DNA from: Chloroflexota bacterium
GTDB lineage: Bacteria; Chloroflexota; Limnocylindria; QHBO01
Reading direction: 5' to 3'
DNA length: 64,000 nucleotides
NCBI GenBank assembly: GCA_039933775.1
Contig: JBDTNK010000001.1
Span: forward strand, 5,938-69,937
Part shown: piece after piece, positions 22,406 through 57,362 of the stretch
Layout: every line of letters begins with the position of its first letter
Numbering within the stretch: position 1 is the first letter of the stretch
Notes under the pieces: generated by a model
Database searches by the model: none
Told to the model about the DNA's origin: nothing
Seen by the model: the letters and a program-made list of their open reading frames with translations, nothing else
Made by a program: the position numbers and the translations under genes

Positions 22406-22483
22406 GGAATCCGACTCTGGACGGGTCACACAGGAGGGGGCACAATGGGCCATCCGCAATCATCCAACAGTACTTGAGGGGGC

Positions 22484-29092: not shown

Positions 29093-29096
29093 ACCG

Positions 29097-34047: not shown

Positions 34048-35330
34048 ACAGCGATGGAAGTGGCTCGAGCGACGCGGACCGGAGTACGCTGACGGACGGG
34101 CCGTTGCGGCTGACGTACCTGATGGGCCGCTACCCCGTCCTCACCGAGACCTTCATTGACCGCGAGATCCTGCGGCTCATCGATCGAGGCGTGGATCTTC
34201 GGATCATCTCGATCCGGCAGCCTGACCACAATCTCTCGCCGCGCCAGCATGACCTCCGCAAGCGTGTTTCGTACCTCCTCCCCGTGTCTTTCGGGTCGCT
34301 GGTGGCGGCGCATGCCACGGCGATGGTCACGCGGCCACGGACCTACTTCGGGACGCTCGGCTGGCTGCTGACACGGCGTCATCCGCGCCGCACGCGGCTT
34401 CGGACGTTGCTGCATTTCGGGACCGGCGTCTATGCCGCGTGGAAGCTGCGCGATCGCAAGGGCGTCCACGTTCATGCCCATTTCGCTGACCGTGCGGCGA
34501 CCGTGGCACTCGTGGCGAGCCGGCTCATCGACGCCCGCTACAGCGTCACGGCCCACGCGCGCGAGATTTACGTCGCTCCGGTGCTGCTTCCCGAGCGGAT
34601 TAGCCAGGCGGCCTTCACCGCGACCTGCACCGAGTACAACCGGCGGCACCTCGCGACGCTCGTCGACGCCAGCACTGCGCAGCGCATCCTGCGCCTCTAC
34701 CACGGCCTCGACCTGAGTACGTTCGATGGGGCGCCGGGTCGCTCCGAGGATCGAGAGCGCCCGCTGCTGCTCTCGGTCGCGCAGCTCTGGGAACGCAAGG
34801 GCCTCGAGGACCTCGTGCGCGCCTGCGGCCTGCTGCGTGATCGCGGAGCCATCTTCGCGTGCGACATCGTCGGCGAGGGTCCGCTCCATGGGCGGCTCGA
34901 GGGGCTCATCCGGCAGCTTCAGCTCGACGGGATCGTCACGCTCACCGGTCCGCTGCGCCATCCCGCAGTGATTTCGCGGCTCGCCGCGGCTCGCGCCTTC
35001 GTGCTGCCCTGCGTCGTGGCGCCCGATGGTGACCGCGACGGCATCCCGAACGTGATCCTGGAGGCGATGGCATCGGGCCTGCCGGTCGTCTCGACCCCAG
35101 TCTCCGGTATCCCTGAGGTCGTTCGGGATGGCGAGACCGGCTTCCTCGTTCCCGAGCACGATCCGCCCGCGGTGGCCGATGCCTTGGAGCGCCTGCTGGC
35201 CGATCCGGAGCTCGCTGGCCAGCTCGGCGAGGCAGGCCGCGCCTTCGTCCGTCGGGAGTTCGATCTCCATCGCAACGTCGATCGTCTGATCGACCAGTTC
35301 GTCGCGTCGAGCATGTCGGCAGCACCTTGA
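34044..35330 (+). CDS. Glycosyltransferase family 4
   Basis: Has the signature FVLPCVVAPDGDRDGIPNVILEAMASGLPVVSTPVSG...GFLVPEHDP. The start is ATGA-coupled. Confidence 0.8.
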   Translation: MNSDGSGSSDADRSTLTDGPLRLTYLMGRYPVLTETFIDREILRLIDRGVDLRIISIRQPDHNLSPRQHDLRKRVSYLLPVSFGSLVAAHATAMVTRPRTYFGTLGWLLTRRHPRRTRLRTLLHFGTGVYAAWKLRDRKGVHVHAHFADRAATVALVASRLIDARYSVTAHAREIYVAPVLLPERISQAAFTATCTEYNRRHLATLVDASTAQRILRLYHGLDLSTFDGAPGRSEDRERPLLLSVAQLWERKGLEDLVRACGLLRDRGAIFACDIVGEGPLHGRLEGLIRQLQLDGIVTLTGPLRHPAVISRLAAARAFVLPCVVAPDGDRDGIPNVILEAMASGLPVVSTPVSGIPEVVRDGETGFLVPEHDPPAVADALERLLADPELAGQLGEAGRAFVRREFDLHRNVDRLIDQFVASSMSAAP

Positions 35331-36376
35331 CCGACACCACGAAGCTGCCGCGCGATACGACGTTCGTCGTATGGGCGGCTCGTCATCGCGGCACCCGGAG
35401 CGCGTGGCTCGCCGCCGAGCTCGGCATCGAGGACCTGCACTACCTCGCGCCGAGCTCCGGGCGTGGGCTTCGGGCGGCGCCGATGAAGTATCCGAGCCAG
35501 CTCGTTCGGACGCTGCGCCTGCTCACGGCGCGCCGTCCGCGCGCCGTCTTCGTCCAGAGCCCGCCGAGCTTCGCGGGCTGGACGGCAGCCGCGTACGCGG
35601 CTGCCTCGGGCGCTGCGGTGGTGGTCGACGCGCACAGCGACGCCTTCGAGCGGGCAATCTGGACGCGCCCCGCGTGGGTCAACCGCCAGATGGCGCAGCG
35701 GATCGCTGCCGTCCTCGTGACTGACGAGCACTGGGCCAGGATCGTTCGTTCGTGGGGTGGGACGCCGATCCTGGTCCCGAACGTTCCGGCACCGCTCGTC
35801 CCCGGCTCCGCTCCGCCACTCGATCCAGAACGCCCCAACGTCGCCGTGGTCAACACCTGGGCGCCTGACGAGCCGCTCGACGCGGTGCTGGCCGCGGCCG
35901 AGCTCATGCCCGGTGTCGCCTTCCACGTCACTGGCCGCAGCGATCGGGTCGGCACGCTCGGTCGACCCATTCCAGCTCACGTCACCTTCACCGGATTCCT
36001 GGACGAAGCGACGTACCTCGGCCTCTTGGCCACCGCCGACGCGGTGGTGTGTCTCACCTCTCGCGACCACACGATGCAGAACGGTGCCGCCGAGGCGCTC
36101 ACCCTCGGCACGCCGGTGGTGACGTCGGACTGGGCCATCCTGCGCAGCTATTTTTCGCGCGGCACCGTCCACACCGACAACAGCGCATCGTCGATCGAAG
36201 CCGGACTGCGGCGGCTCCTTGCGGAGCGCGACGCCTACCGGGCCGAGATCGTTGCGCTGCGCGACGAGCGCCGTCGCAGCTGGGAGGAGACGCGCGCAGA
36301 AGTCATCGAGGCGGTCTGGCGCCGGTTGGCGCCCTCGCCCACGAAACACGACACGAAAGGACTCATTCCGCGATGA
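35327..36376 (+). CDS. Glycosyltransferase (GT4-like C-terminal domain)
   Basis: The C-terminal block is MQNGAAEALTLGTPVVTSD. Coupled on both sides. Confidence 0.5.
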   Translation: MTDTTKLPRDTTFVVWAARHRGTRSAWLAAELGIEDLHYLAPSSGRGLRAAPMKYPSQLVRTLRLLTARRPRAVFVQSPPSFAGWTAAAYAAASGAAVVVDAHSDAFERAIWTRPAWVNRQMAQRIAAVLVTDEHWARIVRSWGGTPILVPNVPAPLVPGSAPPLDPERPNVAVVNTWAPDEPLDAVLAAAELMPGVAFHVTGRSDRVGTLGRPIPAHVTFTGFLDEATYLGLLATADAVVCLTSRDHTMQNGAAEALTLGTPVVTSDWAILRSYFSRGTVHTDNSASSIEAGLRRLLAERDAYRAEIVALRDERRRSWEETRAEVIEAVWRRLAPSPTKHDTKGLIPR

Positions 36377-37689
36377 CGCGAATCAGCATCTTCGGCCTCG
36401 GCTACGTGGGCGCCGTCTCGGCAGCCTGCCTGGCGGATCGCGGCGTCACCGTGGTTGGCGTTGACGTCAGCGGCCTAAAGGTCGAGATGATCAATGAAGG
36501 ACGCAGCCCGATCGTGGAGGAGGGATTGCCGGAGCTGATCGCGGAAGCGGTCACGGCTGGACGGCTGAGCGCCACCTCCGATGTCGCTGCGGCGATCGAG
36601 GCAACCGACCTGTCGCTCATCTGTGTCGGCACGCCGAGCCGCGGCAACGGCGGGCTCGACCTGACTGCCGTCCAGCGCGTGGCCGAGAGCATCGGTCTTG
36701 CGCTTCGCGACAAGACCGCGCCTTACGTCGTGATTGTGCGCAGCACCATGCTGCCCGGGAGCACCGAGACGGTCGTCATCGAGGCGTTGGAGCGCACGTC
36801 GGGCCGATCCATCGGTCCAGACCTCGCTGTCTGCTACCACCCCGAGTTCCTGCGCGAGGGGAGCTCGATCCGCGACTTCCAACATCCGCCCTTCACGATC
36901 ATCGGCGGCGACGACGAGGCGGCCATGGCGAAGGTGGCACAGCTGTACGACGGGATCGAGGCTCCCGTGATCACAACAGGCTACCGAGTCGCCGAGATGT
37001 TGAAGTACGCCTGCAACGGCTTCCACGCCCTGAAGATCACCTTCGCGAACGAGATCGGCCGGGTCTGCAAGGAGCAGGGGATCGACAGCCACGAGGTGAT
37101 GGAGATCTTCAGCCGCGACACGAAGCTCAACATCTCCACGGCCTACCTGCGCCCCGGCTACGCCTTCGGAGGGTCGTGCCTGCCGAAGGATCTGCGCGCA
37201 CTCCTGCAGCACGCCCGTCGCAGCGATGTGGAGGTACCGCTCCTGGCATCGCTGCTGGTGAGCAACGATCGACAGGTCGAGGCGGCGTACGACCTCGTGA
37301 CGTCGGGCGGGGAGCGTCGGGTCGGCGTCGTCGGACTCAGCTTCAAGCCGGGAACCGATGACCTACGCGAGAGCCCGCTGGTGACGCTTGTCGAGCGACT
37401 CATCGGGCGCGGGCGGCAGGTGAAGGTGCACGATCCGAACGTGGCCATGGGACAGGTGCATGGAGCGAACCGCGCCTACATCGCCCAAGAGCTGCCGCAC
37501 GTGGTCTCGATCCTCACCGATTCGCTGGACGAGCTCCTCGACACGAGCGAGGTGATCGTCCTCGGCAACGCGTCGCCAGAGGCGGTCGAAGCCGCGCGGC
37601 GTGCCCGCCCCGAGCAACGAATCGTCGATCTGGCGCGCGCCGTCGAAGCGGTACCCGACGGCGTGGCGTACGAGGGCATTGCCTGGTAG
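36373..37689 (+). CDS. Nucleotide-sugar 6-dehydrogenase (UDP-glucose/GDP-mannose dehydrogenase family)
   Basis: The N-terminus is MTRISIFGLGYVGAVSAACL, the catalytic region is GGSCLPKD, and the C-terminal domain has VGLSFKPGTDDLRESP. Confidence 0.8.
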   Translation: MTRISIFGLGYVGAVSAACLADRGVTVVGVDVSGLKVEMINEGRSPIVEEGLPELIAEAVTAGRLSATSDVAAAIEATDLSLICVGTPSRGNGGLDLTAVQRVAESIGLALRDKTAPYVVIVRSTMLPGSTETVVIEALERTSGRSIGPDLAVCYHPEFLREGSSIRDFQHPPFTIIGGDDEAAMAKVAQLYDGIEAPVITTGYRVAEMLKYACNGFHALKITFANEIGRVCKEQGIDSHEVMEIFSRDTKLNISTAYLRPGYAFGGSCLPKDLRALLQHARRSDVEVPLLASLLVSNDRQVEAAYDLVTSGGERRVGVVGLSFKPGTDDLRESPLVTLVERLIGRGRQVKVHDPNVAMGQVHGANRAYIAQELPHVVSILTDSLDELLDTSEVIVLGNASPEAVEAARRARPEQRIVDLARAVEAVPDGVAYEGIAW

Positions 37690-37818
37690 GGATTACCCGC
37701 GTGGTACTAGCGGCGCGCCGAGACCATTGCTCGGCGCCGGTAGCCCCATTGACCGATACCCGTCGCGCTGGCGCGGACGTAGGCTCCCTGGAGTACCTCA
37801 CCGAGCGGGGAGTCCCTA

Positions 37819-40074
37819 TTGCTGCACGATCGCCGACGTTCGGCTCGCCTCACATCACTGGTCGCCGCCCTGGCGATTGTCATCGTCGTTGGCAGCCTGC
37901 CGTGGGGCAGCGGCCACGTCTCGGGTGTCGAGCCTGACATCCATCGGCTCGGTGGCGCCGATCGATACGCGACCGCGGCCTCGATCTCGAACTACCTCTT
38001 CCCATCCGGCGCTCGCGTCGCCTACGTTGCATCGGGCGAGGCCTTCCCCGATGCGCTCTCGGCCGCCTCAGCCGCCGGCCGCACGGCCCCGGTGCTCCTG
38101 ACCCGCAGTGGTGGGCTGCCCGCGCCGACTGTCACCGAGCTCCAGCGACTCCAGCCGCAGCTGATCGTGGTCGTCGGCGGTGGGGACGCCATCAGCGACG
38201 GGGTCGCGAAACAGCTGCGCACCCTGGCTCCGACAGGACGTGTCCTGCGGTACGCCGGCAAGGATCGGTTCGCGACCGCGGCTGCGGTCAGTGCGATTCT
38301 CTTTCCGGACGGCGCTCGGACCGTTTTCCTGGCGAATGGCAGTGCGTACCCGGATGCCGTCTCTGGCGCACCTGCCGCCGCGACGGACGCCGGAGCGCTC
38401 CTGCTCGTCACGCGTGACGGCATCCCGAGCGTGACGGCGACCGAGCTCGCCCGTCTGCATCCCAGCCGAATCGTGCTGCTCGGGGGTACCGGCGTCATCG
38501 GCGAAGGCGTGGCGAGGGCAGCCTCGGAGTACGCCGAGACCGTCCGCCAGTGGGGCGGGGCCGACCGCTTCGGAACCTCTGCCCTCATCGCCGCGCGGAG
38601 TGCGGAACGGGGGGGCATCGCGGTTGTCGCCAACGGCAGAAGCTTTTCCGACGGCGTGACAGGTGCCGCCGCCGCGGCTTACCTCGAGGCGCCGCTCCTC
38701 CTCACCGACTCGTTCGCTCTGCCCGCCGCGGTGGGAGACGAGCTCGAGCGCCTGCGCCCGGACCGCGTGATCATTATTGGCGGGACGGGGAGCGTCTCAG
38801 ACCAGGTACGCGACCAGATCGCCCAGAAGCTGCGTGATGCGGCGGCGAGCGCGCCGGCAAGCCCGAGCGAGGCGGCGTCGAGCGCGCCACCGACGGCGAT
38901 CGAGAGCCCGACTCCGACTTCCACGCCGGGCACGACATCAACGCCCGCGGCGACGGCAGTGGCCACCCCGGCACCGACCAAGCCTGCTACCCCGGCGCCG
39001 ACCGTCGCGCCGACGCCGCCACTGGCGCCCCCGCCACCGGCAGGCCCGATCCTGGGCTACGGCGCCGGCACGGTGGGCGGGGCCGGTGGGCGCGTGATCG
39101 AGGTTCGCTCGATCGGCGAGCTCCAGAATGCCCTTGCCGCCGACGGGCCGCGCCAGGTGCGCCTCGTGGGCTCGGGCACCTGGGACGCGAACGGCGCGGA
39201 GCTTTCCGTGACAAGGCCCTATGTCACCGTCGATGGGGCGGGCTCGAGCGTGGTGATCGTCGACGGCTGGATCGCGGTGCGCAGCAGCGAGGTGATCCTG
39301 CGGAACCTTCGTGTGCGCACCGGAGATGACAGCGTCAATGCATCGGACGCCGATGCGATCAGCATCAACGGCGGGACCGGAGGCATCTCGAACATCGTCG
39401 TCGACCACGTCGAGGCCATCCAGGCGCCCGATGTCGGGGGGATCACGATCCTCAACAGCGTAAGCAACGTGACCGTCCAGAACTCGATCGTAGGCGAGGG
39501 GCTCTACCGCAGCGCCCACCCGGAGTCCGGCGACGAGGACGGCCACAGCTACGCGATGAATATCTCCGGGCAGCTCGGTGGCGCCTGGCCACGCGCGGTC
39601 ACCATCGTGAACAACCTCATCACGACATCGGAATCTCGCAACCCCCGCGTGTGCGGCGCCGAGCAGGTCGACGTCGTCAACAACGTCATCTACAACTACC
39701 GAATCGGGCCCGCCTGCAATCCGCGGAGCCTGAACCTCGTCAACAACCTGCTCCGTAGCGGACCCGCCGCCGGTGCCGCAGGCCTGACGCCGAAGACCGA
39801 TATCTTCACGCCGCAGACCAGCAGTGACTATCCGACCCTCTTCTCAGGGACGGTCTACGTGTCGGGCAACGTCACCGACGGCCTGGTCGGGACCCTCTCG
39901 TCTTCGCCGCTCTTCGCCGGCTCGCTGCGCGGCGCGTTGTCGGTTGGGCCCGCGCCCGCGAGCACCCTGCTCGACGCCGTGCTGGCGAACGTCGGACCAC
40001 GCCCGATTGATGCGACGACACAACGAATCCTCGATAACGTCCGTAATCGGACCGGCACCTACGTCAACGGGTGA
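37819..40074 (+). CDS. Cell-wall-anchored polysaccharide lyase-fold protein (3x CWB2 repeats + PT linker + pectate-lyase-like right-handed beta-helix)
   Basis: The N-terminal signal/TM is followed by three GxDRYxTAAxxS...LxxGxxFPDALS repeats, which fit putative cell wall binding repeat 2. A P/T/A-rich linker follows. The C-terminal domain has VDHVE (WIDH-like) and NLITTSESRNPRV...VVNNV (RxPxxR + NN), as in PL1 pectate lyases. Confidence 0.6.
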   Translation: MLHDRRRSARLTSLVAALAIVIVVGSLPWGSGHVSGVEPDIHRLGGADRYATAASISNYLFPSGARVAYVASGEAFPDALSAASAAGRTAPVLLTRSGGLPAPTVTELQRLQPQLIVVVGGGDAISDGVAKQLRTLAPTGRVLRYAGKDRFATAAAVSAILFPDGARTVFLANGSAYPDAVSGAPAAATDAGALLLVTRDGIPSVTATELARLHPSRIVLLGGTGVIGEGVARAASEYAETVRQWGGADRFGTSALIAARSAERGGIAVVANGRSFSDGVTGAAAAAYLEAPLLLTDSFALPAAVGDELERLRPDRVIIIGGTGSVSDQVRDQIAQKLRDAAASAPASPSEAASSAPPTAIESPTPTSTPGTTSTPAATAVATPAPTKPATPAPTVAPTPPLAPPPPAGPILGYGAGTVGGAGGRVIEVRSIGELQNALAADGPRQVRLVGSGTWDANGAELSVTRPYVTVDGAGSSVVIVDGWIAVRSSEVILRNLRVRTGDDSVNASDADAISINGGTGGISNIVVDHVEAIQAPDVGGITILNSVSNVTVQNSIVGEGLYRSAHPESGDEDGHSYAMNISGQLGGAWPRAVTIVNNLITTSESRNPRVCGAEQVDVVNNVIYNYRIGPACNPRSLNLVNNLLRSGPAAGAAGLTPKTDIFTPQTSSDYPTLFSGTVYVSGNVTDGLVGTLSSSPLFAGSLRGALSVGPAPASTLLDAVLANVGPRPIDATTQRILDNVRNRTGTYVNG

Positions 40075-41005
40075 GCGCGCGCTCCTGCGGATATAGCTCC
40101 CGCTGGACCGATGAGCCAAGGCCGAGGATCCGTGCCTGCTGCCCGGGTGACAGCTCGGATCGCCAGCGCTCGTCGAGAGTGATCTCACTCCATGCACTCA
40201 GGCGACGCCTGTTGCCGATGAGGTGCTGCTCCGCGTCTGCCAAGAGCGGATCGGCGGCACGCGATCGATCGACGCCACAGAACGCGTACAGGTTGGACAT
40301 CGTGGCCTCGGTCTCGCTGCATAGCTGCTCGTACCACACCGTCATGTGATCCTCGGGCGGCAGGTCGTCTAGGTGACGCAGGATCGTGCGATTCGTCGCG
40401 GCCCAGTTCCTGGCGGCCGCGTCCGCGCCGCCCGCAGCCGAGCTGCCGTGGTGGAGCGCCGACGTCGCCACGCCGCGCACGTCGCGGACGAGATGAATGA
40501 CCTTCAGTGGCATCGGCAGAAAGCGGCGCAGGTGCCTGATGCGCATCCGCTCTTTCGACGCGTCCACGTACACCGATCCGCCGCTGACCGCCATCACCAC
40601 CGCGGCAAAGTCGGCGTTGCGGCGGCCCACCGCAGCCATCGTCGCACCGCGCTCGGTAAGCCGGTCGAGAATCAGGTCCCGCGCCGTCTCGAGCCGGTTC
40701 CAGCGCAGCGAGCCGGTGCGCATTCGCTCCCGGCGAGAGCCGGGCGCTTGGTCGAATCCAAGGCGGAAATGACCGAGCTCAAAGTCGGCGTGGCCACGTG
40801 CGACCATGCGCTCCCGCACCTCCATCCAGAACGGGCACTCGTTCAGGAGGCGGCCGCAGGAGCATCTGTACTCGTCGATCCGCGACTGGCGCCGCCCGCC
40901 AGACGCGGCGCTCACCGTCGCGATGTCGGGATGCGCGCCGAGCAGGTAGGAGAGGAGTGTCGAGCCGGAATAGGCGCTCGAGGCGAGGAAGATGTATGTC
41001 GACAT
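40064..41005 (-). CDS. Sulfotransferase-like protein
   Basis: Has the 5'-PSB-like motif IFLASSAYSGSTLLSYLLGAHP and the 3'-PB-like motif VIHLVRDVRGVATS. It lies between the two lyase-fold paralogs. Confidence 0.55.
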   Translation of the reverse strand: MSTYIFLASSAYSGSTLLSYLLGAHPDIATVSAASGGRRQSRIDEYRCSCGRLLNECPFWMEVRERMVARGHADFELGHFRLGFDQAPGSRRERMRTGSLRWNRLETARDLILDRLTERGATMAAVGRRNADFAAVVMAVSGGSVYVDASKERMRIRHLRRFLPMPLKVIHLVRDVRGVATSALHHGSSAAGGADAAARNWAATNRTILRHLDDLPPEDHMTVWYEQLCSETEATMSNLYAFCGVDRSRAADPLLADAEQHLIGNRRRLSAWSEITLDERWRSELSPGQQARILGLGSSVQRELYPQERALTR

Positions 41006-41142
41006 GGGATGGTGCATTCGGGGCCGCGACTATACCCGACCCCCGATTGGCGCTTCCCGCCGCCCGGGGTATCATGCGCCGGTGGCCCAGCCCGAGCGGG
41101 CAACTGAGGCCGCCGGAGTGTGTCCCCTCCAAAGCAAGGTCC

Positions 41143-42588
41143 TCGATCTCAATGCGTCTTCGCCCCGTCTCCAGCCCCCGTCGTTTCTCGCGCGTTACCT
41201 CGAGCCTCGCCGGGCCCCCACGCCTCGTCGTGCTCTCCGTCGCGCTGCTTGTCATCATCGGGGCAGTCGCTATCGGCTGGCCCAGGACGCCCGAGCCTCC
41301 CCGGCTTGCCGGTGCCGCAGCGGCGTCGCTCACATCGAGTCCGACGCCCCGGCCCTCGATACCTGGGACGCCCAGCCCGTCGGAGCGCGTCGTCGCACTG
41401 GCATCCAAGGATGTCGACCAGATCGAGCCCGGCATCGATGCCACGCAGACGCCAGCTCCGACCGCGGTGCCAGTGGCTCGCGCGACCGTGCCGTCGACTG
41501 CGGCACCCGCGGCCGTCGCGGTCCTCGGCTCAGGAGCGATCGTCGGGTACGGCGGAGCAACCGTCGGCGGCGATGGGGGTCGAGTCGTTGACGTCGGCTC
41601 CATCGACGAGCTCCGCGCGGCGATGTCGGACTCCGGACCGCGCATCGTCCGACTCGTGGGCTCCGGGGTCTGGGATGCAGGCGGCGCCGAACTCACCATT
41701 TCGAAGCCGAATATCACGATCGACGGAGCGGCCTGCTCCTGCCAGATCCGCAACGGCTGGATCAAGGTGGCGGCATCCCAGGTGATCCTCCGCAACCTTC
41801 GCGTCCGTACCGGCGATGAATCCGTTCAGGCGGCGGATGCCGATGCCATCAGCATCAACGGCGGAACCGAAGGCATTTCAAACATCGTGCTCGACCACGT
41901 CGAGGCAATCTGGGCACCGGACATCGGTGGGGTGGCGATTCTGAACCGGGTGACCGACGTCACGGTCCAGAACTCGATCATTGGCGAGGGCCTGTATCTG
42001 TCGCGCCACCCGGAGGGAATCGCCGCCGAGGATGGGCATTCCTACGGCTTCAACATCACGACGCTCGACGGCCGCAGCTTTGCCGAGCGGTTGACAGTTC
42101 ACCACAACCTGATCACGACCTCGAGTCAGCGCAATCCACAGATCATCGCGGCCGCGGCAGTCGACTTCGTGAACAACGTCATCTACGACGCAGGGCTCGA
42201 CTGGGCCTATGGAAATCCGCGCTCTGCGAACATCGTGAACAACATTTATCGCGCCGGGCCGCAGACGCAGACCAGCGACGAATGGCGCAGTCGCACGAAC
42301 GGGGACGTGACTGGCTTCTTCGCAGGCTCCGTGTACCTCTCCGGGAATGTCGCGGACGGCTTCACATTCACGCGCGACGTTGCGGATGGTGTGCTCACCG
42401 ACAGTGCGCCGGTGCCGCTCAGCATCGGACCGGAGTCCACGAAGGGGCTCCTCGAGCGTGTCCTCTCCGGAGTCGGGCCACGTCCCGCAGATGCGACCAC
42501 GCAACGCATCCTGAGCGACGTCTGGAACCTCGCGGGCGCGTTCAGGAACGGCGTTGGACAGCCCGGCCCGAATCCTGTGTGGCCGTGA
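41143..42588 (+). CDS. Membrane-anchored pectate-lyase-fold protein (paralog of 37819-40074 C-terminal domain)
   Basis: The N-terminal TM is LVVLSVALLVIIGAVAIGW, followed by a P/S/T-rich linker. The catalytic region is co-linear with the upstream paralog: ISINGGTEGISNIVLDHVEA, LITTSSQRNPQ and FVNNVIYD. Confidence 0.55.
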   Translation, partial: SISMRLRPVSSPRRFSRVTSSLAGPPRLVVLSVALLVIIGAVAIGWPRTPEPPRLAGAAAASLTSSPTPRPSIPGTPSPSERVVALASKDVDQIEPGIDATQTPAPTAVPVARATVPSTAAPAAVAVLGSGAIVGYGGATVGGDGGRVVDVGSIDELRAAMSDSGPRIVRLVGSGVWDAGGAELTISKPNITIDGAACSCQIRNGWIKVAASQVILRNLRVRTGDESVQAADADAISINGGTEGISNIVLDHVEAIWAPDIGGVAILNRVTDVTVQNSIIGEGLYLSRHPEGIAAEDGHSYGFNITTLDGRSFAERLTVHHNLITTSSQRNPQIIAAAAVDFVNNVIYDAGLDWAYGNPRSANIVNNIYRAGPQTQTSDEWRSRTNGDVTGFFAGSVYLSGNVADGFTFTRDVADGVLTDSAPVPLSIGPESTKGLLERVLSGVGPRPADATTQRILSDVWNLAGAFRNGVGQPGPNPVWP

Positions 42589-43582
42589 CGGCCATCCGGT
42601 GACATCCCAAGCCAGGCGCGCGCTCGTCACGGGTGGCGCGGGGTTCATCGGCAGCACACTCGTTGACCGGCTTCTCACAGACGCGTGGCAGGTCACCGCG
42701 GTCGACTCGTTCGACCCGTATTACGAACGCAGGCGCAAAGAGCTGAATCTCGGCGACGCCGTCACTTCGCCACGGTTTCGGCTCATCGAGGCAGATACCC
42801 GCGACGCCGACGCGTTGGCCGCCGCCTTCGACGAGGCGCGTCCCGAGGTCGTCTTCGACCTCGCGGCCAGAGCCGGCGTTCGCCCCTCGATCGCGGACCC
42901 GGGTGCGTACGTGGCGACGAACGTCGTTGGGCTGCAGCGCACCCTCGACAACGTCGCTCGCCATGCGGCGCGGCTCGTCTTCGCGTCGTCGAGCTCGATC
43001 TACGGCGTGGACGAGCGACGGCCGTTCCGCGAGGACCAGGCACGTGGACGGCCGATCTCGCCGTACGGCGCGACGAAGGTGGCAGGGGAGGCGCTATGCC
43101 ATGCCCACCACGCCATCACCGGGCTTCCCGTCGGTGTTGCCCGCCTCTTCACCGTCTACGGGCCCAGGCAGCGGCCCGATCTTGCCATTCACTCCTTCGC
43201 TTGGCGAATGCTGAAGGGAGAGCCGATCGAGCTCTTCGACGAGGGGCGTCCGTTGCGCGACTACACCTACGTCGACGACCTCGTGGACGCGCTCGTGCGA
43301 CTCGCTGGGATCGACGACCCCTGGCTCGTCGTGAACCTCGGCAGCGACCGTCCCATCGCCGTGACGGAGATGGTCGGCGAAATCGAGCGCGCGCTCGGCG
43401 CGATCGCCGAACGGCGCCTGGTGCCACCCCAACCCGGCGATGTGCCGGGGACGCACGCCGACATCACACGCGCAGCGGAGCGCCTCGGCTGGCGGCCCAC
43501 GACGCCGTTTCCGGTTGGGATCGACCGATTCTGTGCCTGGTTGCGGCTCGAGATGGACGAGCTCGCCCTCAGTCGGACCTGA
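42554..43582 (+). CDS. NAD-dependent epimerase/dehydratase (extended SDR; UDP-glucuronate 4-epimerase/decarboxylase-like)
   Basis: The Rossmann motif is ALVTGGAGFIGSTLV and the catalytic motif is YGATK. A GTG at 42599 is a likely alternative start, just after the upstream stop. Confidence 0.75.
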   Translation: MDSPARILCGRDGHPVTSQARRALVTGGAGFIGSTLVDRLLTDAWQVTAVDSFDPYYERRRKELNLGDAVTSPRFRLIEADTRDADALAAAFDEARPEVVFDLAARAGVRPSIADPGAYVATNVVGLQRTLDNVARHAARLVFASSSSIYGVDERRPFREDQARGRPISPYGATKVAGEALCHAHHAITGLPVGVARLFTVYGPRQRPDLAIHSFAWRMLKGEPIELFDEGRPLRDYTYVDDLVDALVRLAGIDDPWLVVNLGSDRPIAVTEMVGEIERALGAIAERRLVPPQPGDVPGTHADITRAAERLGWRPTTPFPVGIDRFCAWLRLEMDELALSRT

Positions 43583-44918
43583 TCGCCTCCACGCGTCGCT
43601 GCCCATCGCGGCGCCCGATCGACAGCATCGTCAGCCCAGCCGCCTCCACGCGATCCGCGTCGAGCGCATCCCGCGCATCCAGCAGAACGCGGCCGCGCAT
43701 CACGTCCGCGATCGGTCCCAGGTCCGCGGTGACATACTCGGCCCAGTCGGTGGCCAATACCACGGCATCCGCGCCGGTCGCGGTGCGGATCGGGTTGTCC
43801 GCGATTTCGATCCAGGGCTCGCGGCTCGCGACGATCGATGCCGCCTGCGGATCGCACGCCACGACCGTCGCCCCGCGCTCGCGCAACACCTCGGCCAGGA
43901 GCAGCGCGGGAGAATCACGGATATCGTCGGTTCCCGCCTTGAACGCCAGGCCAAGCAGCCCGACCCGCGCGCCCTGGAGGCCGTCGGGGATGGCTCGATC
44001 GAGGCGGTGCGCGACGCGGATCGGCTGCGTCGCGTTCACTGCGTCAACCGCGCGCGCGAGCGTCATCTCGACGCCGCGTGCTTTACCCATCGCGATCATC
44101 GAACGAACGTCCTTGGGCAGGCAGGATCCGCCGTAGCCGATCCCGGGCTTGAAGTAGTCCGAACCGATGCGAGGATCGGCGGCGACCGCATCGAGGACCG
44201 AGTCGATCGCCGCACCGGTCGCTTCGCAGAGCGCGGCGAGCTCGTTGACGAAGCTGATCCGCGCCGCGAGGTAGGTGTTCGAGGCGTTCTTGACCAGCTC
44301 GGCACTCTCGGCGTCGAGCACGAAGATGGGTGCGCCGAGGGGCCGATACAGCGTCTCCAGCGTATCGACGTCGGCATCGGTGGCCGTCTCCGTGCGCCCG
44401 AGCACCACGCGGCTCGGGTGCAGGAAGTCGTCGAGCGCGCGACCGGTGCGCAGGAACTCGGGGTTGGCAACGACCGCGACACCCTGGGGACCGCCGCGCT
44501 CACGAAGGAGGCCGTTCAGCATGGCCTCCACGCGCCGCGTCGTGCCCACCGGCACCGTGCTGCGCAGCGCGACCACTGTCCGCGAGCCGAGATGGCGAGC
44601 GAGCGACTCGATGACGCTCTCGACCGCGGTCAGGTCAGCCTCGCCGGTGGCGCTCGATGGCGTCCCCACGCAGACGAGCACGACGTCGGGCTCGCGCAGC
44701 GCGTCCGCCGGATCCGACGTGAAGCGCAGCCCGCCGTTGCCCTGCAGCGCGGTGAGCTCCCCCTGGAGATGGGGTTCGTAGTACGGCGCCTCCCCGCGTT
44801 CGAGCGAGGCGACCTTGTCCACGTCGGACTCGAGGCCGGAGACGCGCTGCCCAAGCCGGGCCAGGCAAGTGGCGGTTACGAGCCCGACGTAGCCCAGGCC
44901 GACCACGGTGATGTGCAC
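43569..44918 (-). CDS. ugd: UDP-glucose 6-dehydrogenase
   Basis: The N-terminus is (V)HITVVGLGYVGLVTATCL, the catalytic region is GYGGSCLPKD, and the C-terminal region has GLAFKAGTDDIRDSP. The start is a GTG. Confidence 0.85.
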   Translation of the reverse strand: MHITVVGLGYVGLVTATCLARLGQRVSGLESDVDKVASLERGEAPYYEPHLQGELTALQGNGGLRFTSDPADALREPDVVLVCVGTPSSATGEADLTAVESVIESLARHLGSRTVVALRSTVPVGTTRRVEAMLNGLLRERGGPQGVAVVANPEFLRTGRALDDFLHPSRVVLGRTETATDADVDTLETLYRPLGAPIFVLDAESAELVKNASNTYLAARISFVNELAALCEATGAAIDSVLDAVAADPRIGSDYFKPGIGYGGSCLPKDVRSMIAMGKARGVEMTLARAVDAVNATQPIRVAHRLDRAIPDGLQGARVGLLGLAFKAGTDDIRDSPALLLAEVLRERGATVVACDPQAASIVASREPWIEIADNPIRTATGADAVVLATDWAEYVTADLGPIADVMRGRVLLDARDALDADRVEAAGLTMLSIGRRDGQRRVEAIRSD

Positions 44919-44923
44919 GAAAA

Positions 44924-46300
44924 TTGATCCTCTCTGAGGCGGCCGATGTTCTCTCTACCCCCGGGAGCGACGGGCACCCGCTTCGGCCGGCAATCTGGCT
45001 TGGGATCATAACCGGCGGAGTATCATCACCGCTCGCGACTGGCCGATCCGCGTCGCACGATTGGCTCGCATCTGCCACGAGGTCCGAGATCAGCCGCCTC
45101 CCCGAACCCGACGACCTTCGAACCAGCGACGCCGACGACCTTGAAGAGATCGGGATCCGTGGAGATCTCGATCCTGAGCCGTTCGCGCGGATTGCCGCGC
45201 GCCGCCGCCAGGCGGTTGCCGGTGCGGAGCCACGCGGCACGACGCGGTGGCAGATCGTCCGACGCGTCGTCATCGGCCTGCTGGCCCTCTGGGTCTTCCT
45301 GGTGGCGCTCGCGCTCATGCGTGACGGCGCTCGTGGATTGGCGCCGGCGCTCGGCGCGGCCGTGTCGTCGATCCCCAACGCCGTTGGCTTCGGCTGGCTC
45401 GGCGCCCTCCTCGTCCTCTCTGGGTCACCAGTCGCGGCGACCTCGCTCGCGCTGCTTGACGCGGGGGCGGTGTCCGTCGACGAGAGCTACGGGATGATCG
45501 TGGGCTCGCGGCTTGGCGCGGCGTTCGTCGTGCTCGTCATCGGCGCCCTCTACGCACTTCGGGGTCGGTCCGTCGGGCGCCGCGCGCCTATCTCCATAGG
45601 CGTCCTCGCATTGACGATGACCGCGGTGGTCTACATCCCGGGCGGGTTCATCGGGCTTGCCCTGCTGCGATCGGGGTGGCTCTCAGGGCTGACGCTGACG
45701 CCACCCCCGATCTTCTACGACGGCACGCGCGCCCTCACCGAGCCGCCCGTCGCCCTACTCGAGCGGGTGCTCGATCCAACGCAGATGCTCCCCGCCGCGT
45801 TCCTCTTCGTCATCGGCGTCGGACTCCTGCTGCTCGCCTTCCGCCTCGTCGACGAGCTCCTCCCGTCGCTCGAGCGGGCCGGGGTGAGCGAACGAGCGCG
45901 CTGGTACGTCGGGCCGTGGACGATGTTCGCCATCGGGCTGGTGGCGGCGTTGGCGACGCTATCGGTGGCCGTCGCCCTGAGCATTCTTGTGCCGGCGGTG
46001 GCGAAAGGCTACCTGCGCCGCGAGCAGACGCTGCCGTACATCATCGGCGCGAACATCACGACATTGGTGGACACGCTCCTCGTCGGCGTGCTGACTGGGA
46101 ACGACGATGCGCCGCGCGTGGTGCTTGCGGTCGGCATCGGAGTGACGCTGGTGAGCGTGGTGCTGCTGGCGGTGGCGTATCGCCCGCTGCGTCGCGCGAC
46201 GTTCGCCCTCCAATCGGCGGTGCTCACGAGCCCGGCACGCCTGGGGGCCTTCGTCGCGTTGCTCTTCCTGTTGCCGATCGCGCTGCTCGTTGTCCGCTGA
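44924..46300 (+). CDS. Polytopic membrane protein, Na+/phosphate-cotransporter-family-like (start uncertain)
   Basis: There are multiple TM helices and a IIGANITTLVDTLLVG motif like the GANIGTT motif of Na/Pi cotransporter-family proteins. The first 60 or so codons of the track ORF have poor GC3 and abut the ugd start, so the true start is probably near 45150-45310. Confidence 0.4.
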   Translation: MILSEAADVLSTPGSDGHPLRPAIWLGIITGGVSSPLATGRSASHDWLASATRSEISRLPEPDDLRTSDADDLEEIGIRGDLDPEPFARIAARRRQAVAGAEPRGTTRWQIVRRVVIGLLALWVFLVALALMRDGARGLAPALGAAVSSIPNAVGFGWLGALLVLSGSPVAATSLALLDAGAVSVDESYGMIVGSRLGAAFVVLVIGALYALRGRSVGRRAPISIGVLALTMTAVVYIPGGFIGLALLRSGWLSGLTLTPPPIFYDGTRALTEPPVALLERVLDPTQMLPAAFLFVIGVGLLLLAFRLVDELLPSLERAGVSERARWYVGPWTMFAIGLVAALATLSVAVALSILVPAVAKGYLRREQTLPYIIGANITTLVDTLLVGVLTGNDDAPRVVLAVGIGVTLVSVVLLAVAYRPLRRATFALQSAVLTSPARLGAFVALLFLLPIALLVVR

Positions 46301-46322
46301 GCCGGTGCTGGCGGCCGGCCCT

Positions 46323-47246
46323 CTAGCTCAGTCGGGCGCCGGGCTGCAGCCTCGGGTCATCGGTCAGCGGACTCCCTGCCAATCGCAGCTCGCGCAGCAC
46401 GATCCGGCCGCCGGGTGCGGCGACAACCGGGCTGCCGGCCTCGATCCCGATGATCTCGCCGGGCCGGCCACGGTGCGGGAGTCGGTCCCAGGCCACGGCG
46501 GCCACCTCGATGCGACGGCCCTCGGACGCGATCTCAGGGTACTGGAAGGGCGGGAAGATGAAGGCGCGCATGCGATCCGCGATGCGCCTGCAATCGTCGT
46601 CCCAGCGGACGAGACGCTCTGAGAAGTCCAGCGCCCAGCGGTTGTAGTACAGCGCCGCCGTGTCGTCCTGGGGCGTTCCCGGCACGGTCTCCAGGAGCCG
46701 AATCTCGGGCCAGGCGGCAGCAAAGAGCGTGATCCCGGTTTCAACGCAGCGGTCGTAGACGACCCGTCCGGTGTCGTCCGGGCCGATCGTCACCGACGAG
46801 GAACGCACCAGCGGTCCGCTGTCGACTCCCGGATCGATATGGTGGAGTGTGACGCCGGTTGCCGTCTCGCCGTTCATGATCGCCCAGGCGATGGGCGCCA
46901 CGCCACGGTAGCGGGGCAGCGGTCCGTAGTGCAGGTTGAGGGCTGCGACGCTCGCCGTGGCAATGAGCGGTGCACGAAGAATTGGACCCGCCTGGAAGGA
47001 AAGCAGGAATTCGGGCCGCAGCGCCGCGACGTCGGCCACGGCGGACGGATCATTGACATTCACCGGATCGAGCACCCGGTGCCCGCCGCGCCGGGCTGCG
47101 GCGCGAAGCGACGGCTGCCAACCATCTGCTCCGTCGTCGTGCGCGTCGACGATGACGCCGACGATCTCATCGCCGGCCTTCATCACGATCTCGAGTGCGG
47201 CGACGGCGAGGCCGGTGCGTCCGATGATCACGACCCGGCGCTTCAT
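46323..47246 (-). CDS. N10-formyl-THF-dependent formyltransferase (Fmt/ArnA-N/sugar N-formyltransferase family)
   Basis: The catalytic-core motif is ALNLHYGPLPRYRGVAPIAWAIMNGETATGVTLHHID (HxSLLPxxRG...G.T.H). The N-terminus has a Rossmann-like motif RVVIIGRTG. Confidence 0.75.
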   Translation of the reverse strand: MKRRVVIIGRTGLAVAALEIVMKAGDEIVGVIVDAHDDGADGWQPSLRAAARRGGHRVLDPVNVNDPSAVADVAALRPEFLLSFQAGPILRAPLIATASVAALNLHYGPLPRYRGVAPIAWAIMNGETATGVTLHHIDPGVDSGPLVRSSSVTIGPDDTGRVVYDRCVETGITLFAAAWPEIRLLETVPGTPQDDTAALYYNRWALDFSERLVRWDDDCRRIADRMRAFIFPPFQYPEIASEGRRIEVAAVAWDRLPHRGRPGEIIGIEAGSPVVAAPGGRIVLRELRLAGSPLTDDPRLQPGARLS

Positions 47247-47803
47247 CGCCGCACCTCGTCGGGCAGGCGTCGATCGGTCCCCTCCGCGCGCCGCCGCCGC
47301 GGCGGCACGAACCCCTCGCTGAGGATCACTTCACCGGCTTCCGGGCGCTGATCACCGAGCGTGTGGCTCGCTGCCAGCTTCATTCGTTCGAGTCGGACGT
47401 TGCGGATCCGCCGCGCGAACCACGACCGCCCGAGCCGCGACCACGCGATCGCGCCCGCCAGACCGCTCACCGAATCGATGACGACGTCCATCAGCATCGG
47501 AGTCCTCCCTGGAACGAATGACTGGTGCAGCTCGTCGACGATCGCATAGAGCGCGACGAAGACGACCGCCCACCAGGTCCGCCGACTCAGCCGGGAGCGG
47601 TCCATGGCGTGCGCCGTGAGCACGCCCAGGATCGAGAACACGACGACGTGTCCCACCTTCGCCAACCCGAAGCGCCAGCGTCCCAGGCCCTCACCAAGGT
47701 CCGGCTGGCTCGACAGGATGAAGATGACGGTCATCCAGGCAACGACCGCCGTCCACGCAACGATGGGAGAGACGCCGGGGCGACGGCGTGCAAGCTGGGG
47801 CAT
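47243..47803 (-). CDS. VanZ-like family membrane protein
   Basis: TM helices plus the VanZ motif IVDELHQSFVPGRTP. It overlaps the formyltransferase start by 4 nt. The start was chosen at MPQLARR. Confidence 0.5.
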   Translation of the reverse strand: MPQLARRRPGVSPIVAWTAVVAWMTVIFILSSQPDLGEGLGRWRFGLAKVGHVVVFSILGVLTAHAMDRSRLSRRTWWAVVFVALYAIVDELHQSFVPGRTPMLMDVVIDSVSGLAGAIAWSRLGRSWFARRIRNVRLERMKLAASHTLGDQRPEAGEVILSEGFVPPRRRRAEGTDRRLPDEVRR

Positions 47804-47894
47804 CTGCGAAGAGAATAGCGGTACGACGCGCGCTCGGCCGAAGGCAGCCGAGCGTAGCGACTGTCGCAAGCAGCGTCGCCGCTCGGGAGGAACG

Positions 47895-49088: not shown

Positions 49089-49230
49089 GGCCCGTTGCGT
49101 TCACGCCACGCTGTCTGCTGCCAGCACCTCCCCCGCAGGTGACCTGCTTCAGCGGAGTCGCTACCCTGTGGCGCGCGACGTCGTCAAGCGCGCTGCCCTA
49201 TTCGAACGACGAAGTGGAGACAGACCAAGG

Positions 49231-50328: not shown

Positions 50329-50426
50329 CGGCAGCGTCGCTTCCCCGTGCTCGGGGGGATGTGGTGCGTACTGGCGACAGTGACCGCAGCACGGCGGGCG
50401 GATCGCTTGTGACGGCAGTACGCTAG

Positions 50427-51134: not shown

Positions 51135-51150
51135 CGCGTGGCTGAACGGG

Positions 51151-57299: not shown

Positions 57300-57362
57300 G
57301 GGCTGCCCGCGAGTATAGCCGAGCGCATGCCCCGCACCCAACGGCACAATCGTGTTCGCGCC

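Follow-up and report, generated by a model that had tools for sequence, protein, structure and literature searches.

Two PL1-type lyases, one wall-anchored and one membrane-anchored by prediction, encoded within a putative sulfated polysaccharide gene cluster of a soil Chloroflexota bacterium

In a soil Chloroflexota MAG, we have identified two paralogous proteins, P1 and P2, whose catalytic domains are assigned to PL1 by fold and profile and whose genes are placed within a ~41-kb Wzx/Wzy gene cluster. With a probability of roughly 0.6, we consider both to be extracytoplasmic, surface-tethered and biosynthesis-associated lyases with a predicted activity toward the cell's own sulfated polyuronide. 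The type of enzyme is already known, and it is the setting and the anchoring that are new. The genes concerned are located as follows in the window, i.e., the whole stretch of 64,000 nucleotides that was analyzed:

36373 to 37689, plus strand: nucleotide-sugar 6-dehydrogenase directly upstream of P1 (gene call; UDPG_MGDP_dh domains; TIGR03026, E 6.5e-121; AglM/TuaD-like)
37819 to 40074, plus strand: P1, PL1-type lyase of 751 aa (open reading frame; identical gene call on L001; Pfam, NCBIfam; AF2 model)
40064 to 41017, minus strand: sulfotransferase of 317 aa, convergent with P1 and divergent from P2 (Sulfotransfer_3, E 7.6e-15; Sulfotransfer_1, E 2e-6)
41047 to 41075, plus strand: promoter-like site TTGGCG-17-TATCAT upstream of P2 (consensus scan)
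41152 to 42588, plus strand: P2, PL1-type lyase of 478 aa (gene call on L001; identical to P0006, NCBI ABI534_00215)
42554 to 43582, plus strand: SDR epimerase, UDP-glucuronate 4-epimerase-like, overlapping the 3' end of P2 by 35 nt (Pfam Epimerase, E 3.9e-54)
43569 to 44918, minus strand: second nucleotide-sugar 6-dehydrogenase, a TuaD-like UDP-glucose dehydrogenase (domain and profile matches)

The map of open reading frames bears out the preliminary description of this DNA, in which an opposite-strand sulfotransferase gene lay between the two lyases; its 3' end converges on that of P1 with an overlap of 11 nt (40064-40074). The third open reading frame extends from 40798 to 42588 on the plus strand, and the start of P2 is the ATG at 41152 in the gene call on the identical public contig L001, so that a 134-nt divergent intergenic region separates P2 from the sulfotransferase gene instead of a 220-nt antisense overlap. 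The promoter-like site is in this region; the consensus scan returned two sites against 0.3 expected, which is weak evidence. The sulfotransferase matches PF13469 with 56.2 bits (cutoff, 27), contains the segments SAYSGSTLL and VRDVRG, which we take to be the 5'-PSB-like and 3'-PB-like motifs, respectively, and has an ortholog adjoining the lyase in another locus, L005.

The gene content of the window also agrees with the earlier proposal of a pathway for a sulfated, uronic-acid-containing polymer. Namely, genes for sulfation (nine sulfotransferases, ATP sulfurylase, APS kinase and an NrnA-like PAP phosphatase), for assembly (a WbaP-type initiating transferase, Wzx, Wzy, Wzz and several GT4s) and for uronate supply (two UDP-Glc-dehydrogenase-like and one UDP-GlcA 4-epimerase-like) were found. 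The epimerase matches BcUGAepi (6zl6, E 1.3e-46) and MoeE5 (6kv9, E 5.1e-42) in the PDB, and such a gene is directly 3' of the lyase in L005, L020 and L025 as well. Judging from these gene assignments, the cluster appears to build a sulfated, uronic-acid-containing polymer; this heteropolysaccharide is most likely the substrate of P1 and P2, and its uronic acid is probably of the galacturonic-acid type.

That P1 and P2 are pectate-lyase-fold paralogs, as had been claimed, is supported by their beta-helix domains, which are 54% identical over 382 aa (E 5e-113), and by modeling, structural and profile searches. Indeed, the structure prediction that had been suggested gave a PL1 beta-helix for the catalytic domain of P1 (AF2; pLDDT 96.8, pTM 0.94), and when this model was compared with the PDB by Foldseek, the best 27 matches were all PL1 (E 3.7e-13 to 7.5e-5), with a TM of 0.80 to PfPL1 (9buj). 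A family profile searched against PDB sequences hit PfPL1 (2.8e-75), VexL (4.2e-29) and 7xks (1.9e-13), and a single-sequence search also hit 9buj (2.9e-7). NCBIfam PelZ was matched by both P1 (4.8e-24) and P2 (7.4e-17). Among the Pfam families checked, CW_binding_2 was clearly recovered in P1, but PF00544 stayed under its gathering score of 24 bits in both proteins (19.8 and 20.7 bits), and we therefore base the PL1 assignment on the profile matches and the fold instead of on Pfam. The identity to characterized PL1 enzymes is only about 20%; in terms of E-value, the nearest subfamily would be subfamily 2, to which PfPL1, PelZ and BT_4115/4116/4119 belong. The catalytic domains are acidic overall (pI ~4.6-5.0), although enzymes for a polyanionic sulfated substrate might be expected to present a basic surface.

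The preliminary description had recognized an RxPxxR landmark in both proteins. Its catalytic Arg stands, while the literal motif does not: the sequence is R607-N-P-R610-V-C in P1 and R327-N-P-Q330-I-I in P2, and this region has the RxPR form of VexL and PfPL1. R607 and R327 align with R232 of VexL, R220 of PfPL1 and the RxP Arg of 3zsc and 7xks, and this position is invariant in all 77 homologs. By alignment, R607 is predicted to be the Bronsted base equivalent to VexL R232, and R610 would be the carboxylate-binding Arg equivalent to VexL R235. The latter is Arg in 48 of the 77 homologs; in P2 it is Gln, as it is in the L005 ortholog, which is 73% identical. D512, D538, H567 and H576 (P1 numbering) are also nearly invariant. 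In classical pectate lyases, Ca2+ is bound by an acidic triad (D131/E166/D170 of PelC), of which two positions are kept here (D512 and D538 in P1) and the third is occupied by Thr (P1) or Ala (P2). Given that VexL and PfPL1, both accepted as PL1, also lack the third ligand, the triad marks a Ca-dependent subgroup and not the whole family. The Arg at the P1 R610 position is of consequence in VexL, in which mutants of R232-N-P-R235 are inactive (R235A is dead, and R235K retains 5% activity; PMC6003464). As P2 lacks this Arg together with the third Ca ligand, some of the paralogs might be weak or altered enzymes.

The missing second Arg in P2 and several relatives would also suit a reading in which the proteins are not lyases: they could be polymer-level uronate C5-epimerases, given that proton-abstraction chemistry and the beta-helix fold are common to both kinds of enzyme, or inert beta-helix proteins for binding or scaffolding in the export machinery. 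Sulfated polymers of animals, furthermore, contain epimerized uronates. We nonetheless regard this reading as very improbable. The mannuronan C5-epimerase AlgE4 (2pyg) resembles the domain only remotely in structure (E 1.6e-3, TM 0.33), the PL1 lyases being far closer at E 1e-8 to 1e-13, and an AlgG-type identity was rejected; no sequence match to a C5-epimerase was obtained in Pfam, NCBIfam or PDB-sequence profile searches, which leaves the epimerase-like alternative of the preliminary description unsupported. Also, we know of no PL1 member that is an epimerase, and an inert protein is hardly compatible with a strictly conserved base Arg. The contrary outcome that had been envisaged, an adhesin or autotransporter family without the catalytic Arg, was likewise rejected: PfbA (4mr0) was the sole such match (E 2.8e-3, TM 0.40), and the Arg is present and invariant.

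The two proteins differ in how they would be anchored. In P1, the following parts were recognized:

37819 to 37926, plus strand: signal peptide region, aa 1-36 (RRRSAR n-region, then a hydrophobic core; putative cleavage site)
37945 to 38832, plus strand: three CWB2 repeats, about aa 43-136, 144-238 and 244-338 (each opened by G-x-D-R-[YF]; borders set by eye)
38833 to 39042, plus strand: Pro/Ala/Thr-rich stalk, aa 339-408 (P 29%, A 27%, T 19%, S 11%)
39043 to 40071, plus strand: PL1 catalytic domain, aa 409-751 (right-handed beta-helix plus C-terminal helical adornment)
39637 to 39648, plus strand: R607-N-P-R610 (HMM alignment to VexL and PfPL1)

The N-terminus of P1 has a Kyte-Doolittle 19-residue maximum of 2.17 at aa 11, and aa 6-25 are modeled as a helix by AF2. 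The three CWB2 modules noticed earlier are well supported by PF04122 (E 6.9e-49; three stretches, 164.7 bits with the cutoff at 24.9) and by matches to PDB sequences of Cwp6 (5j72, 6.7e-31), Cwp8 (2.2e-18) and SlpA, while in the model this part has a pLDDT of 30-70, leaving the trimer without a confident 3D model. The stalk is of the P/T/A-rich composition first described and is modeled at low pLDDT with no secondary structure. A monoderm envelope, proposed from the CWB2 repeats and here taken to bear a wall polymer, fits with these genuine modules, with the Chloroflexota origin of the MAG and with relatives that have SLH in the same role. In P2, the parts are:

41221 to 41280, plus strand: transmembrane segment, aa 24-43, LVVLSVALLVIIGAVAIGW (preceded by an Arg-rich tail taken as cytoplasmic)
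41281 to 41529, plus strand: Ala/Pro/Ser/Thr-rich stalk, aa 44-126 (A 21%, P 19%, S 10%, T 10%, V 10%)
41530 to 42585, plus strand: PL1 catalytic domain, aa 127-478 (alignment to P1; R327-N-P-Q330 at 42130-42141)

The single N-terminal transmembrane segment of P2 agrees with a hydropathy peak (Kyte-Doolittle, 19 residues) of 2.77 at aa 25, and from the positive-inside rule we infer an N-in topology. The stalk reported for P2 is there, but its composition is Ala/Pro-rich rather than Ser/Pro/Thr-rich.

We propose that the invariant Arg (R607 in P1 and R327 in P2) would take the C5 proton off a uronate residue in the beta-helix groove, and that beta-elimination would then break the 4-O-glycosidic bond to leave a 4,5-unsaturated end, probably with no catalytic Ca2+ by analogy with VexL. 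P2 would be tethered to the membrane via its N-terminal helix and the ~80-aa stalk, and P1 would be secreted and tethered to the wall via the CWB2 triplet and the ~70-aa stalk. With one enzyme held at the membrane and the other at the wall, the polymer would be exposed to lyases at two levels of the envelope, where its length might be trimmed or the polymer might be released or cleared. Also, the subsite preference probably differs between the two, since P1 has the carboxylate-binding R610 and P2 has Gln.

Close homologs of P1 and P2 are confined to Chloroflexota, where they make up a tier of their own, with an identity of 39-58% within the clade and of 26-34% to homologs in Bacteroidota and Ignavibacteriota. 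The residue at the position of P1 R636 is basic in 83% of the close homologs versus 0% of the distant ones. A sulfotransferase gene is encoded within 10 kb in 11 of the 22 close-homolog loci versus only one of 58 loci of distant PL1 homologs (Fisher p 7e-7); half of the close-homolog loci are accordingly without one at this distance. The gene order DH-(ST)-lyase-epimerase-DH-FMT-VanZ-GT4-DegT is conserved in L004, L005, L020 and L025. Alternatively, P1 and P2 might be ordinary catabolic pectate or pectin lyases that are displayed on the surface for feeding on plant or algal polygalacturonan and are beside a biosynthetic cluster by chance. Their nearest characterized relatives (PfPL1, PelZ and the Bacteroides PL1_2 enzymes) indeed degrade pectin, and the distant homologs in Bacteroidota and Ignavibacteriota have no sulfotransferase context. 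We consider this quite unlikely, however, because the synteny with biosynthetic genes is kept across Chloroflexota, the association with sulfotransferases is far from random, and 35 nt are shared between the P2 and epimerase genes; furthermore, neither uronate catabolism genes nor sugar transporters were seen in the window.

A hydrophobic N-terminus followed by a PTSA-rich linker is found in 52 of the 60 close homologs, and the relatives do not all have one kind of anchor, which may be TM plus stalk, CWB2 or SLH. The second CWB2 fusion (L009) is among unrelated genes, and an SLH-fused copy (L008) is also outside any sulfotransferase cluster. These two copies, together with the wall-polymer-binding modules on P1 and several relatives and the TuaD-like dehydrogenases of the cluster, would be consistent with lyases that remodel another endogenous wall glycopolymer (for instance, a teichuronic-acid-like secondary cell-wall polymer that also serves as the CWB2 or SLH ligand) for wall turnover or cell separation, and not an exported sulfated polymer. 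We consider this unlikely, given that at least five genomes have the default TM-plus-stalk copy at a fixed place within the sulfotransferase cluster; the product of the cluster may itself be wall-associated, and the wall-glycopolymer reading thus partly merges with a role of P1 and P2 on the cell's own sulfated polyuronide.

In terms of sequence and structure, the best match to P1 and P2 is PfPL1 of Pseudoalteromonas fuliginea, which belongs with PelZ to CAZy PL1 subfamily 2. The profile match runs through the entire domain, with the C-terminal helical adornment, and the RxPR motif, the S-x-H-P ... H motifs and the absence of the third Ca-ligand Asp are shared; for PfPL1, a catalytic step that is independent of metal has been proposed (PMC11229556). 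PfPL1 is, however, a soluble catabolic pectinase of a pectin-utilization locus, whereas P1 and P2 are surface-anchored by prediction and encoded in a biosynthetic cluster, and the pairwise identity is only ~20%, with the Chloroflexota clade having its own conserved Arg (R636). VexL of Achromobacter denitrificans (6fi2; PL1 subfamily 13), a lyase of the Vi-antigen biosynthesis locus, degrades the polymer of its own cell (PMC6003464). Its Q/S-R-N-P-R motif, with R232 as the base and R235 for binding the carboxylate, is identical, its catalysis is metal-independent, and its gene is part of the locus that makes the polyuronide substrate. In contrast, VexL is less similar in sequence (4.2e-29) than PL1_2, and is a soluble periplasmic enzyme that cleaves O-acetylated poly-GalNAcA in a diderm whose capsule system is of the ABC-transporter type; P1 and P2 are two paralogs, tethered by prediction, in a Wzx/Wzy cluster of a Chloroflexota MAG, with a presumably sulfated polymer. 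AlgL (alginate), PslG, PelA and ExoK are also degrading enzymes encoded with biosynthetic genes, and glycanases of such clusters control chain length, release or clearance (PMC6003464), but these are of other folds and families, periplasmic in diderms, and none is linked to a sulfated polymer.

With regard to the anchoring, P1 resembles Cwp6, Cwp8, Cwp19 and SlpA of Clostridioides difficile in having a signal peptide, three tandem CWB2 modules and a functional domain, which in P1 is a predicted enzyme. Those Cwp proteins that are known enzymes are, however, amidases, proteases or glycoside hydrolases of Firmicutes, whereas P1 is from Chloroflexota, where its close relatives carry SLH instead of CWB2; we found no report of a CWB2-polysaccharide lyase fusion. 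As for the polymer, the synechan (xss) cluster of Synechocystis 6803 is a Wzx/Wzy system for a sulfated EPS with embedded sulfotransferases, two of which are named in the cluster, and the word "lyase" is absent from the text of that paper (PMC8205485). Synechan contains only ~3% uronic acid; compared with xss, the present cluster is from Chloroflexota, includes genes for its own PAPS supply and encodes nine sulfotransferases along with the two predicted lyases.

We tentatively suggest, as a possibility short of probable, that the Chloroflexota clade is a new PL1 subfamily for an endogenous, heavily sulfated galacturonan-type polymer outside cyanobacteria, which would be processed at the surface in two tiers, by membrane- and wall-tethered enzymes with differing subsite requirements (RNPR versus RNPQ or RMPV). 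If so, these would be the first known lyases for a bacterial sulfated exopolysaccharide and would provide a marker for finding sulfated polymers in uncultured soil bacteria.

The preliminary description had called three open reading frames at the lyase locus and had taken the middle one for a sulfotransferase; all three were recovered, and the middle product is of the PAPS type (Sulfotransfer_3, 7.6e-15).

37819-40074 (+), P1, a 751-aa protein
40064-41017 (-), sulfotransferase, 317 aa
40798-42588 (+), open reading frame containing P2

The 11-nt overlap between P1 and the sulfotransferase gene, also described beforehand, involves the stop-proximal ends of both genes. Gene calls on the public contig L001, which is 100% identical to window 36017-51818, place the start of P2 at ATG 41152 and give a protein of 478 aa, identical in sequence to P0006 ([quoted passage not shown] at NCBI). 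Given this start, a divergent intergenic gap of 134 nt separates the sulfotransferase from P2, and a sigma-70-like site, which is weak evidence, lies in it at 41047-41075. Identity with this Chloroflexota protein assigns the window (~68-70% GC) to an uncultured Chloroflexota genome rather than to an actinobacterium.

The two proteins differ at their N-termini and share their C-terminal domain. In P1, a basic and then hydrophobic segment (aa 1-36; Kyte-Doolittle 19-residue maximum, 2.17) is followed by three CWB2 repeats (PF04122, three stretches, E 6.9e-49), a 70-aa stalk that is 86% Pro/Ala/Thr/Ser, and a C-terminal domain of 343 aa; the top solved relatives of the repeats are C. difficile Cwp6 (6.7e-31), Cwp8, and SlpA. 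P2 starts with an Arg-rich tail, continues with a single strongly hydrophobic segment (aa 24-43; Kyte-Doolittle, 2.77) and an Ala/Pro/Ser/Thr-rich stalk of ~80 aa, and ends in the same domain as P1 (54% identity over 382 aa, E 5e-113). The anchors proposed earlier, namely three CWB2 repeats with a P/T/A-rich stalk on the first protein and one N-terminal transmembrane segment with a stalk on the second, hence hold, and by the positive-inside rule the catalytic domain of P2 would face outward. At the other end, a G-x-P-G-P-N-P-x-W-P motif closes at least 90% of the lyase family including P2 and is absent from P1, which ends in ...TYVNG; this truncation (window 40040-40074) falls where P1 and the sulfotransferase gene overlap convergently by 11 nt.

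The pectate-lyase fold that had been claimed for both proteins was borne out by a structure model, Foldseek, and a profile search. Pfam Pectate_lyase_4 stays below its threshold in both (19.8 and 20.7 vs 24 bits), and NCBIfam PelZ matches at 4.8e-24 and 7.4e-17. A search of 5.8 billion proteins returned ~100 relatives, nearly all metagenomic and most with no Pfam domain on record; the broader superfamily comprises 2,926 cluster representatives at E <= 1e-30, and the close clade has few members, almost all of them metagenomic sequences. The AlphaFold2 model of the C-terminal domain, built on 77 relatives, is a right-handed beta-helix with C-terminal helices (pLDDT 96.8, pTM 0.94). In the model of full-length P1, the catalytic domain is confident, and the CWB2 region (pLDDT 30-70) is uninformative on a CWB2 trimer. 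The first 27 Foldseek matches in the PDB were all PL1 lyases, the best being PfPL1 (9buj), the PL1 subfamily 2 pectinase of Pseudoalteromonas fuliginea (E 3.7e-13, TM 0.80), and the family profile matched PfPL1 over the whole domain at 2.8e-75 and VexL, the Vi-antigen lyase (6fi2), at 4.2e-29. Given this ranking and these profile matches, the domain does not fall in a non-lyase beta-helix family with its catalytic residues absent, a case raised in the preliminary description. Other beta-helix proteins did appear in the Foldseek search, namely PL6 lyases, the C5-epimerase AlgE4 (E 1.6e-3, TM 0.33), and the adhesin PfbA (E 2.8e-3), all far behind PL1; the C5-epimerase and adhesin readings were ranked low, and it is very improbable that P1 and P2 are an epimerase or an inert binder.

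The residues around the catalytic center, whose equivalences rest on HMM alignments, point to a lyase as well. P1 R607 and P2 R327 align with VexL R232, PfPL1 R220, and the RxP arginines of 3zsc and 7xks, and this arginine is invariant in 77 of 77 sequences. In VexL, R232 is the proposed base, R232A and R232K being inactive, and R235 makes a bidentate contact with a carboxylate, with R235A dead and R235K retaining 5% activity (PMC6003464). Arg220 and Arg235 are named for PfPL1 (PMC11229556); Arg220 matches the alignment, but no Arg lies 15 residues past it in the aligned chain, and Arg235 was left out of our comparison as a probable carry-over of the VexL numbering. The literal RxPxxR motif of the preliminary description is, however, absent: P1 has R-N-P-R in common with VexL, and the second-Arg position is Gln in P2 and in its 73%-identical ortholog at L005, the locus from the closest genome, and Val or Ala in other relatives (R 48, Q 13, and K 3 across the family, with others making up the rest). 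R610 in P1 versus Q330 in P2 suggests that the two enzymes would differ in their requirements for the neighboring sugar. Of the three classical Ca ligands, two are retained (D512 and D538 in P1), and the third is replaced by Thr in P1 and Ala in P2. The same two-of-three pattern is seen in VexL, which is metal-independent (PMC6003464), and in PfPL1, for which metal-independent catalysis has been proposed (PMC11229556). Furthermore, H567 of P1, the counterpart of VexL K195 in the alignment, shows 98% conservation within the close clade, and at R636, one helix turn past the base, a basic residue is found in 83% of close relatives and 0% of distant ones. A sulfated substrate might have been reflected in a positively charged catalytic domain, but no such charge was found (pI ~4.6-5.0).

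The lyase pair lies inside a complete Wzx/Wzy polysaccharide cluster of ~41 kb (roughly 8887-50328) with nine sulfotransferase genes, which is flanked by housekeeping genes (upstream, those of the oxidative pentose phosphate pathway; downstream, cysS).

8887-9861, sulfotransferase (sulfation supply)
9833-10966 (-), NrnA-like DHH/DHHA1 PAP phosphatase (sulfation supply)
11008-12249, ATP sulfurylase (sulfation supply)
12283-12948, APS kinase (sulfation supply)
14423-15178, WbaP-type initiating transferase (assembly/export)
14983-16293, GFO/IDH/MocA oxidoreductase (assembly/export)
16419-17558, fusion of an N-terminal Wzz chain-length determinant and a C-terminal GGDEF diguanylate cyclase domain (assembly/export)
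17470-19122, Wzx (assembly/export)
22484-24739, protein of 751 aa with NHL repeats and, at its C-terminus, a CBM_4_9 carbohydrate-binding module, just upstream of Wzy (assembly/export)
24761-26221, Wzy (assembly/export)
26059-32712, seven consecutive sulfotransferases
32833-36376, three GT4 glycosyltransferases
lyase neighborhood, in order: nucleotide-sugar dehydrogenase, P1, sulfotransferase (40064-41017), P2, SDR, TuaD-like UDP-glucose dehydrogenase
downstream: Na/Pi-cotransporter-like protein, ArnA-N-like formyltransferase, VanZ, GT4, ArnB/PseC-like aminotransferase

The SDR start overlaps P2 by 35 nt, and the UDP-glucuronate 4-epimerases BcUGAepi (1.3e-46) and MoeE5 (5.1e-42) are among the best relatives of the SDR with a solved structure. 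Because of this gene content, the cluster can be predicted to produce PAPS and UDP-GlcA, to recycle PAP, and to build a repeat-unit polymer via Wzx/Wzy; it probably makes UDP-GalA as well. GalA-type residues are the canonical PL1 substrate. The closest structural relative, PfPL1, is itself a pectinase, and the pair is embedded in these biosynthetic genes; that P1 and P2 are catabolic pectinases was likewise ranked low and is considered improbable. The Wzz-GGDEF fusion suggests that the length of the polymer or its production is under c-di-GMP-linked control. Several other genes are of note in their own right. Three coding-looking ORFs (227, 179, and 249 aa; 19338-22459, -) without a Pfam match lie mid-cluster, and homologs of the NHL/CBM_4_9 protein occupy the equivalent relative position in L005 and L020. 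The 458-aa membrane protein at 44924-46300, a weak Na/Pi-cotransporter match missing from the same position in L005, may import an anion, either sulfate or phosphate. The formyltransferase/VanZ/GT4/aminotransferase block (46323-50328) is conserved in L004, L005, L020, and L025 and may point to a formylated amino sugar as a component of the polymer. Outside the cluster and unrelated to the lyases, two ketoacyl synthases and an acyltransferase lie in a row (53759-57347, -), followed by a carotenoid-synthesis-family protein (58748-59824).

When one genome per GTDB species was scanned with a tighter alignment (A2), 80 homologous loci were recovered, which fall into two tiers. The 22 close loci (39-58% identity) are labeled Chloroflexota or its lineages (Ca. 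Limnocylindria, Chloroflexia, Roseiflexaceae) in 19 cases and "uncultured bacterium" in three; the 58 distant loci (26-34% identity, barring three truncated contig-end matches at 40-45%) come from Bacteroidota, Ignavibacteriota, Cyanobacteria, and others. When six-frame ORFs of all loci were searched with the window's proteins, sulfotransferases were found within 10 kb in 11 of the 22 close but only one of the 58 distant loci, and an HMM of the window sulfotransferases gave the same outcome (Fisher p 7e-7). The lone exception, L056, is labeled Ca. Zixiibacteriota and may be a mis-binned Chloroflexota contig, since the match is truncated at the contig end and 45% identical. The order dehydrogenase-(sulfotransferase)-lyase-epimerase-dehydrogenase-formyltransferase-VanZ-GT4-aminotransferase...cysS recurs in L004, L005, L020, and L025, and clusters of this same kind are present in L002 and L003. 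L005 has the P2 ortholog, and since no P1 lies there between dehydrogenase and sulfotransferase, P1 is, judged by gene order, a lineage-specific addition; in a neighbor-joining tree, P1 groups with P2 and L005.

The catalytic domain is combined with different anchors among its homologs. The default layout, a hydrophobic N-terminus and then a PTSA-rich linker of 55-190 aa, is found in 52 of 60 close homologs. CWB2 fusions were seen in P1, in the protein at L009, in P0105 (749 aa, 80% identical), and in three of the 59 best cluster representatives. L009, from a Chloroflexia MAG, encodes a CWB2 x3-PL1 fusion of 794 aa (8696-11080) that shows 44% identity over 732 aa. Instead of a polysaccharide cluster, its surroundings hold genes for a Zn ABC transporter, a DUF11 surface protein of 1516 aa, a CAP-domain protein, and a MacB-like ABC system; a sulfotransferase cluster with a TM-type lyase (L020) lies ~220 kb off in the same genome. 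That P1 and P2 act on another wall polymer is an unlikely reading, albeit the foremost of the alternatives. SLH fusions occur in L004/L015 (one genome), L008, and L025. In L004, TM/stalk-type and SLH-type lyases stand in tandem (10407-11506 and 12428-13527), with different N-termini and catalytic regions of 100% identical DNA over 1100 bp, which could reflect a very recent duplication, gene conversion, or an assembly artefact. BLASTP with composition-based statistics found no match between P1 and the SLH-bearing neighbor in L004, an artefact of those statistics; mode 0 gave 41% identity (E 2e-83), and hhalign a probability of 100. One catalytic domain carried on a TM-plus-stalk, CWB2, or SLH anchor neatly illustrates modular surface display for Chloroflexota, a phylum whose envelope is poorly understood.

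The earlier interpretation is, overall, supported by the PL1 fold, the catalytic Arg, and the sulfotransferase-rich uronic-acid cluster. With a probability of about 60%, we consider P1 and P2 likely to be PL1 beta-eliminases that are tethered to the cell surface and process the cluster's own uronic-acid-containing, sulfated polymer. The polymer would be flipped and polymerized outside the membrane and then met by the two enzymes, P2 acting beside the membrane and P1 at the wall. We infer lyase activity on this substrate, metal independence, and a physiological purpose in length control, release, or clearance. This setting mirrors that of VexL, a lyase within Vi-antigen loci, and AlgL, PslG, and PelA offer functional parallels.

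The PL1 family and the concept of a biosynthetic cluster that also encodes a lyase are already known. New are a PL1 clade confined to Chloroflexota, the conserved association of this clade with clusters rich in sulfotransferases, the display of a PL1 domain on a CWB2, SLH, or TM-plus-stalk anchor, and the two-anchor paralog pair. In the literature, we found no report of such lyase display, the CWB2-lyase fusion included, and nothing relevant on pectate lyases together with sulfotransferase clusters or on Limnocylindria polysaccharides. The surrounding sulfotransferase cluster is the more striking feature, because bacterial sulfated polysaccharides have been stated to be known only from cyanobacteria (PMC8205485, PMC13390465). 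Our results suggest that uncultured Chloroflexota that are abundant in soil and freshwater (Ca. Limnocylindria and relatives) encode a pathway much richer in sulfotransferases, and that a dedicated PL1 lyase belongs to its conserved components. If the lyases cut the polymer of the cluster, PL1 specificity would extend to a sulfated polyuronide, the enzymes would become tools for cutting a glycosaminoglycan-like bacterial polymer into defined oligosaccharides, and the PL1 clade adjoining sulfotransferases would serve as a simple genomic marker for such clusters.
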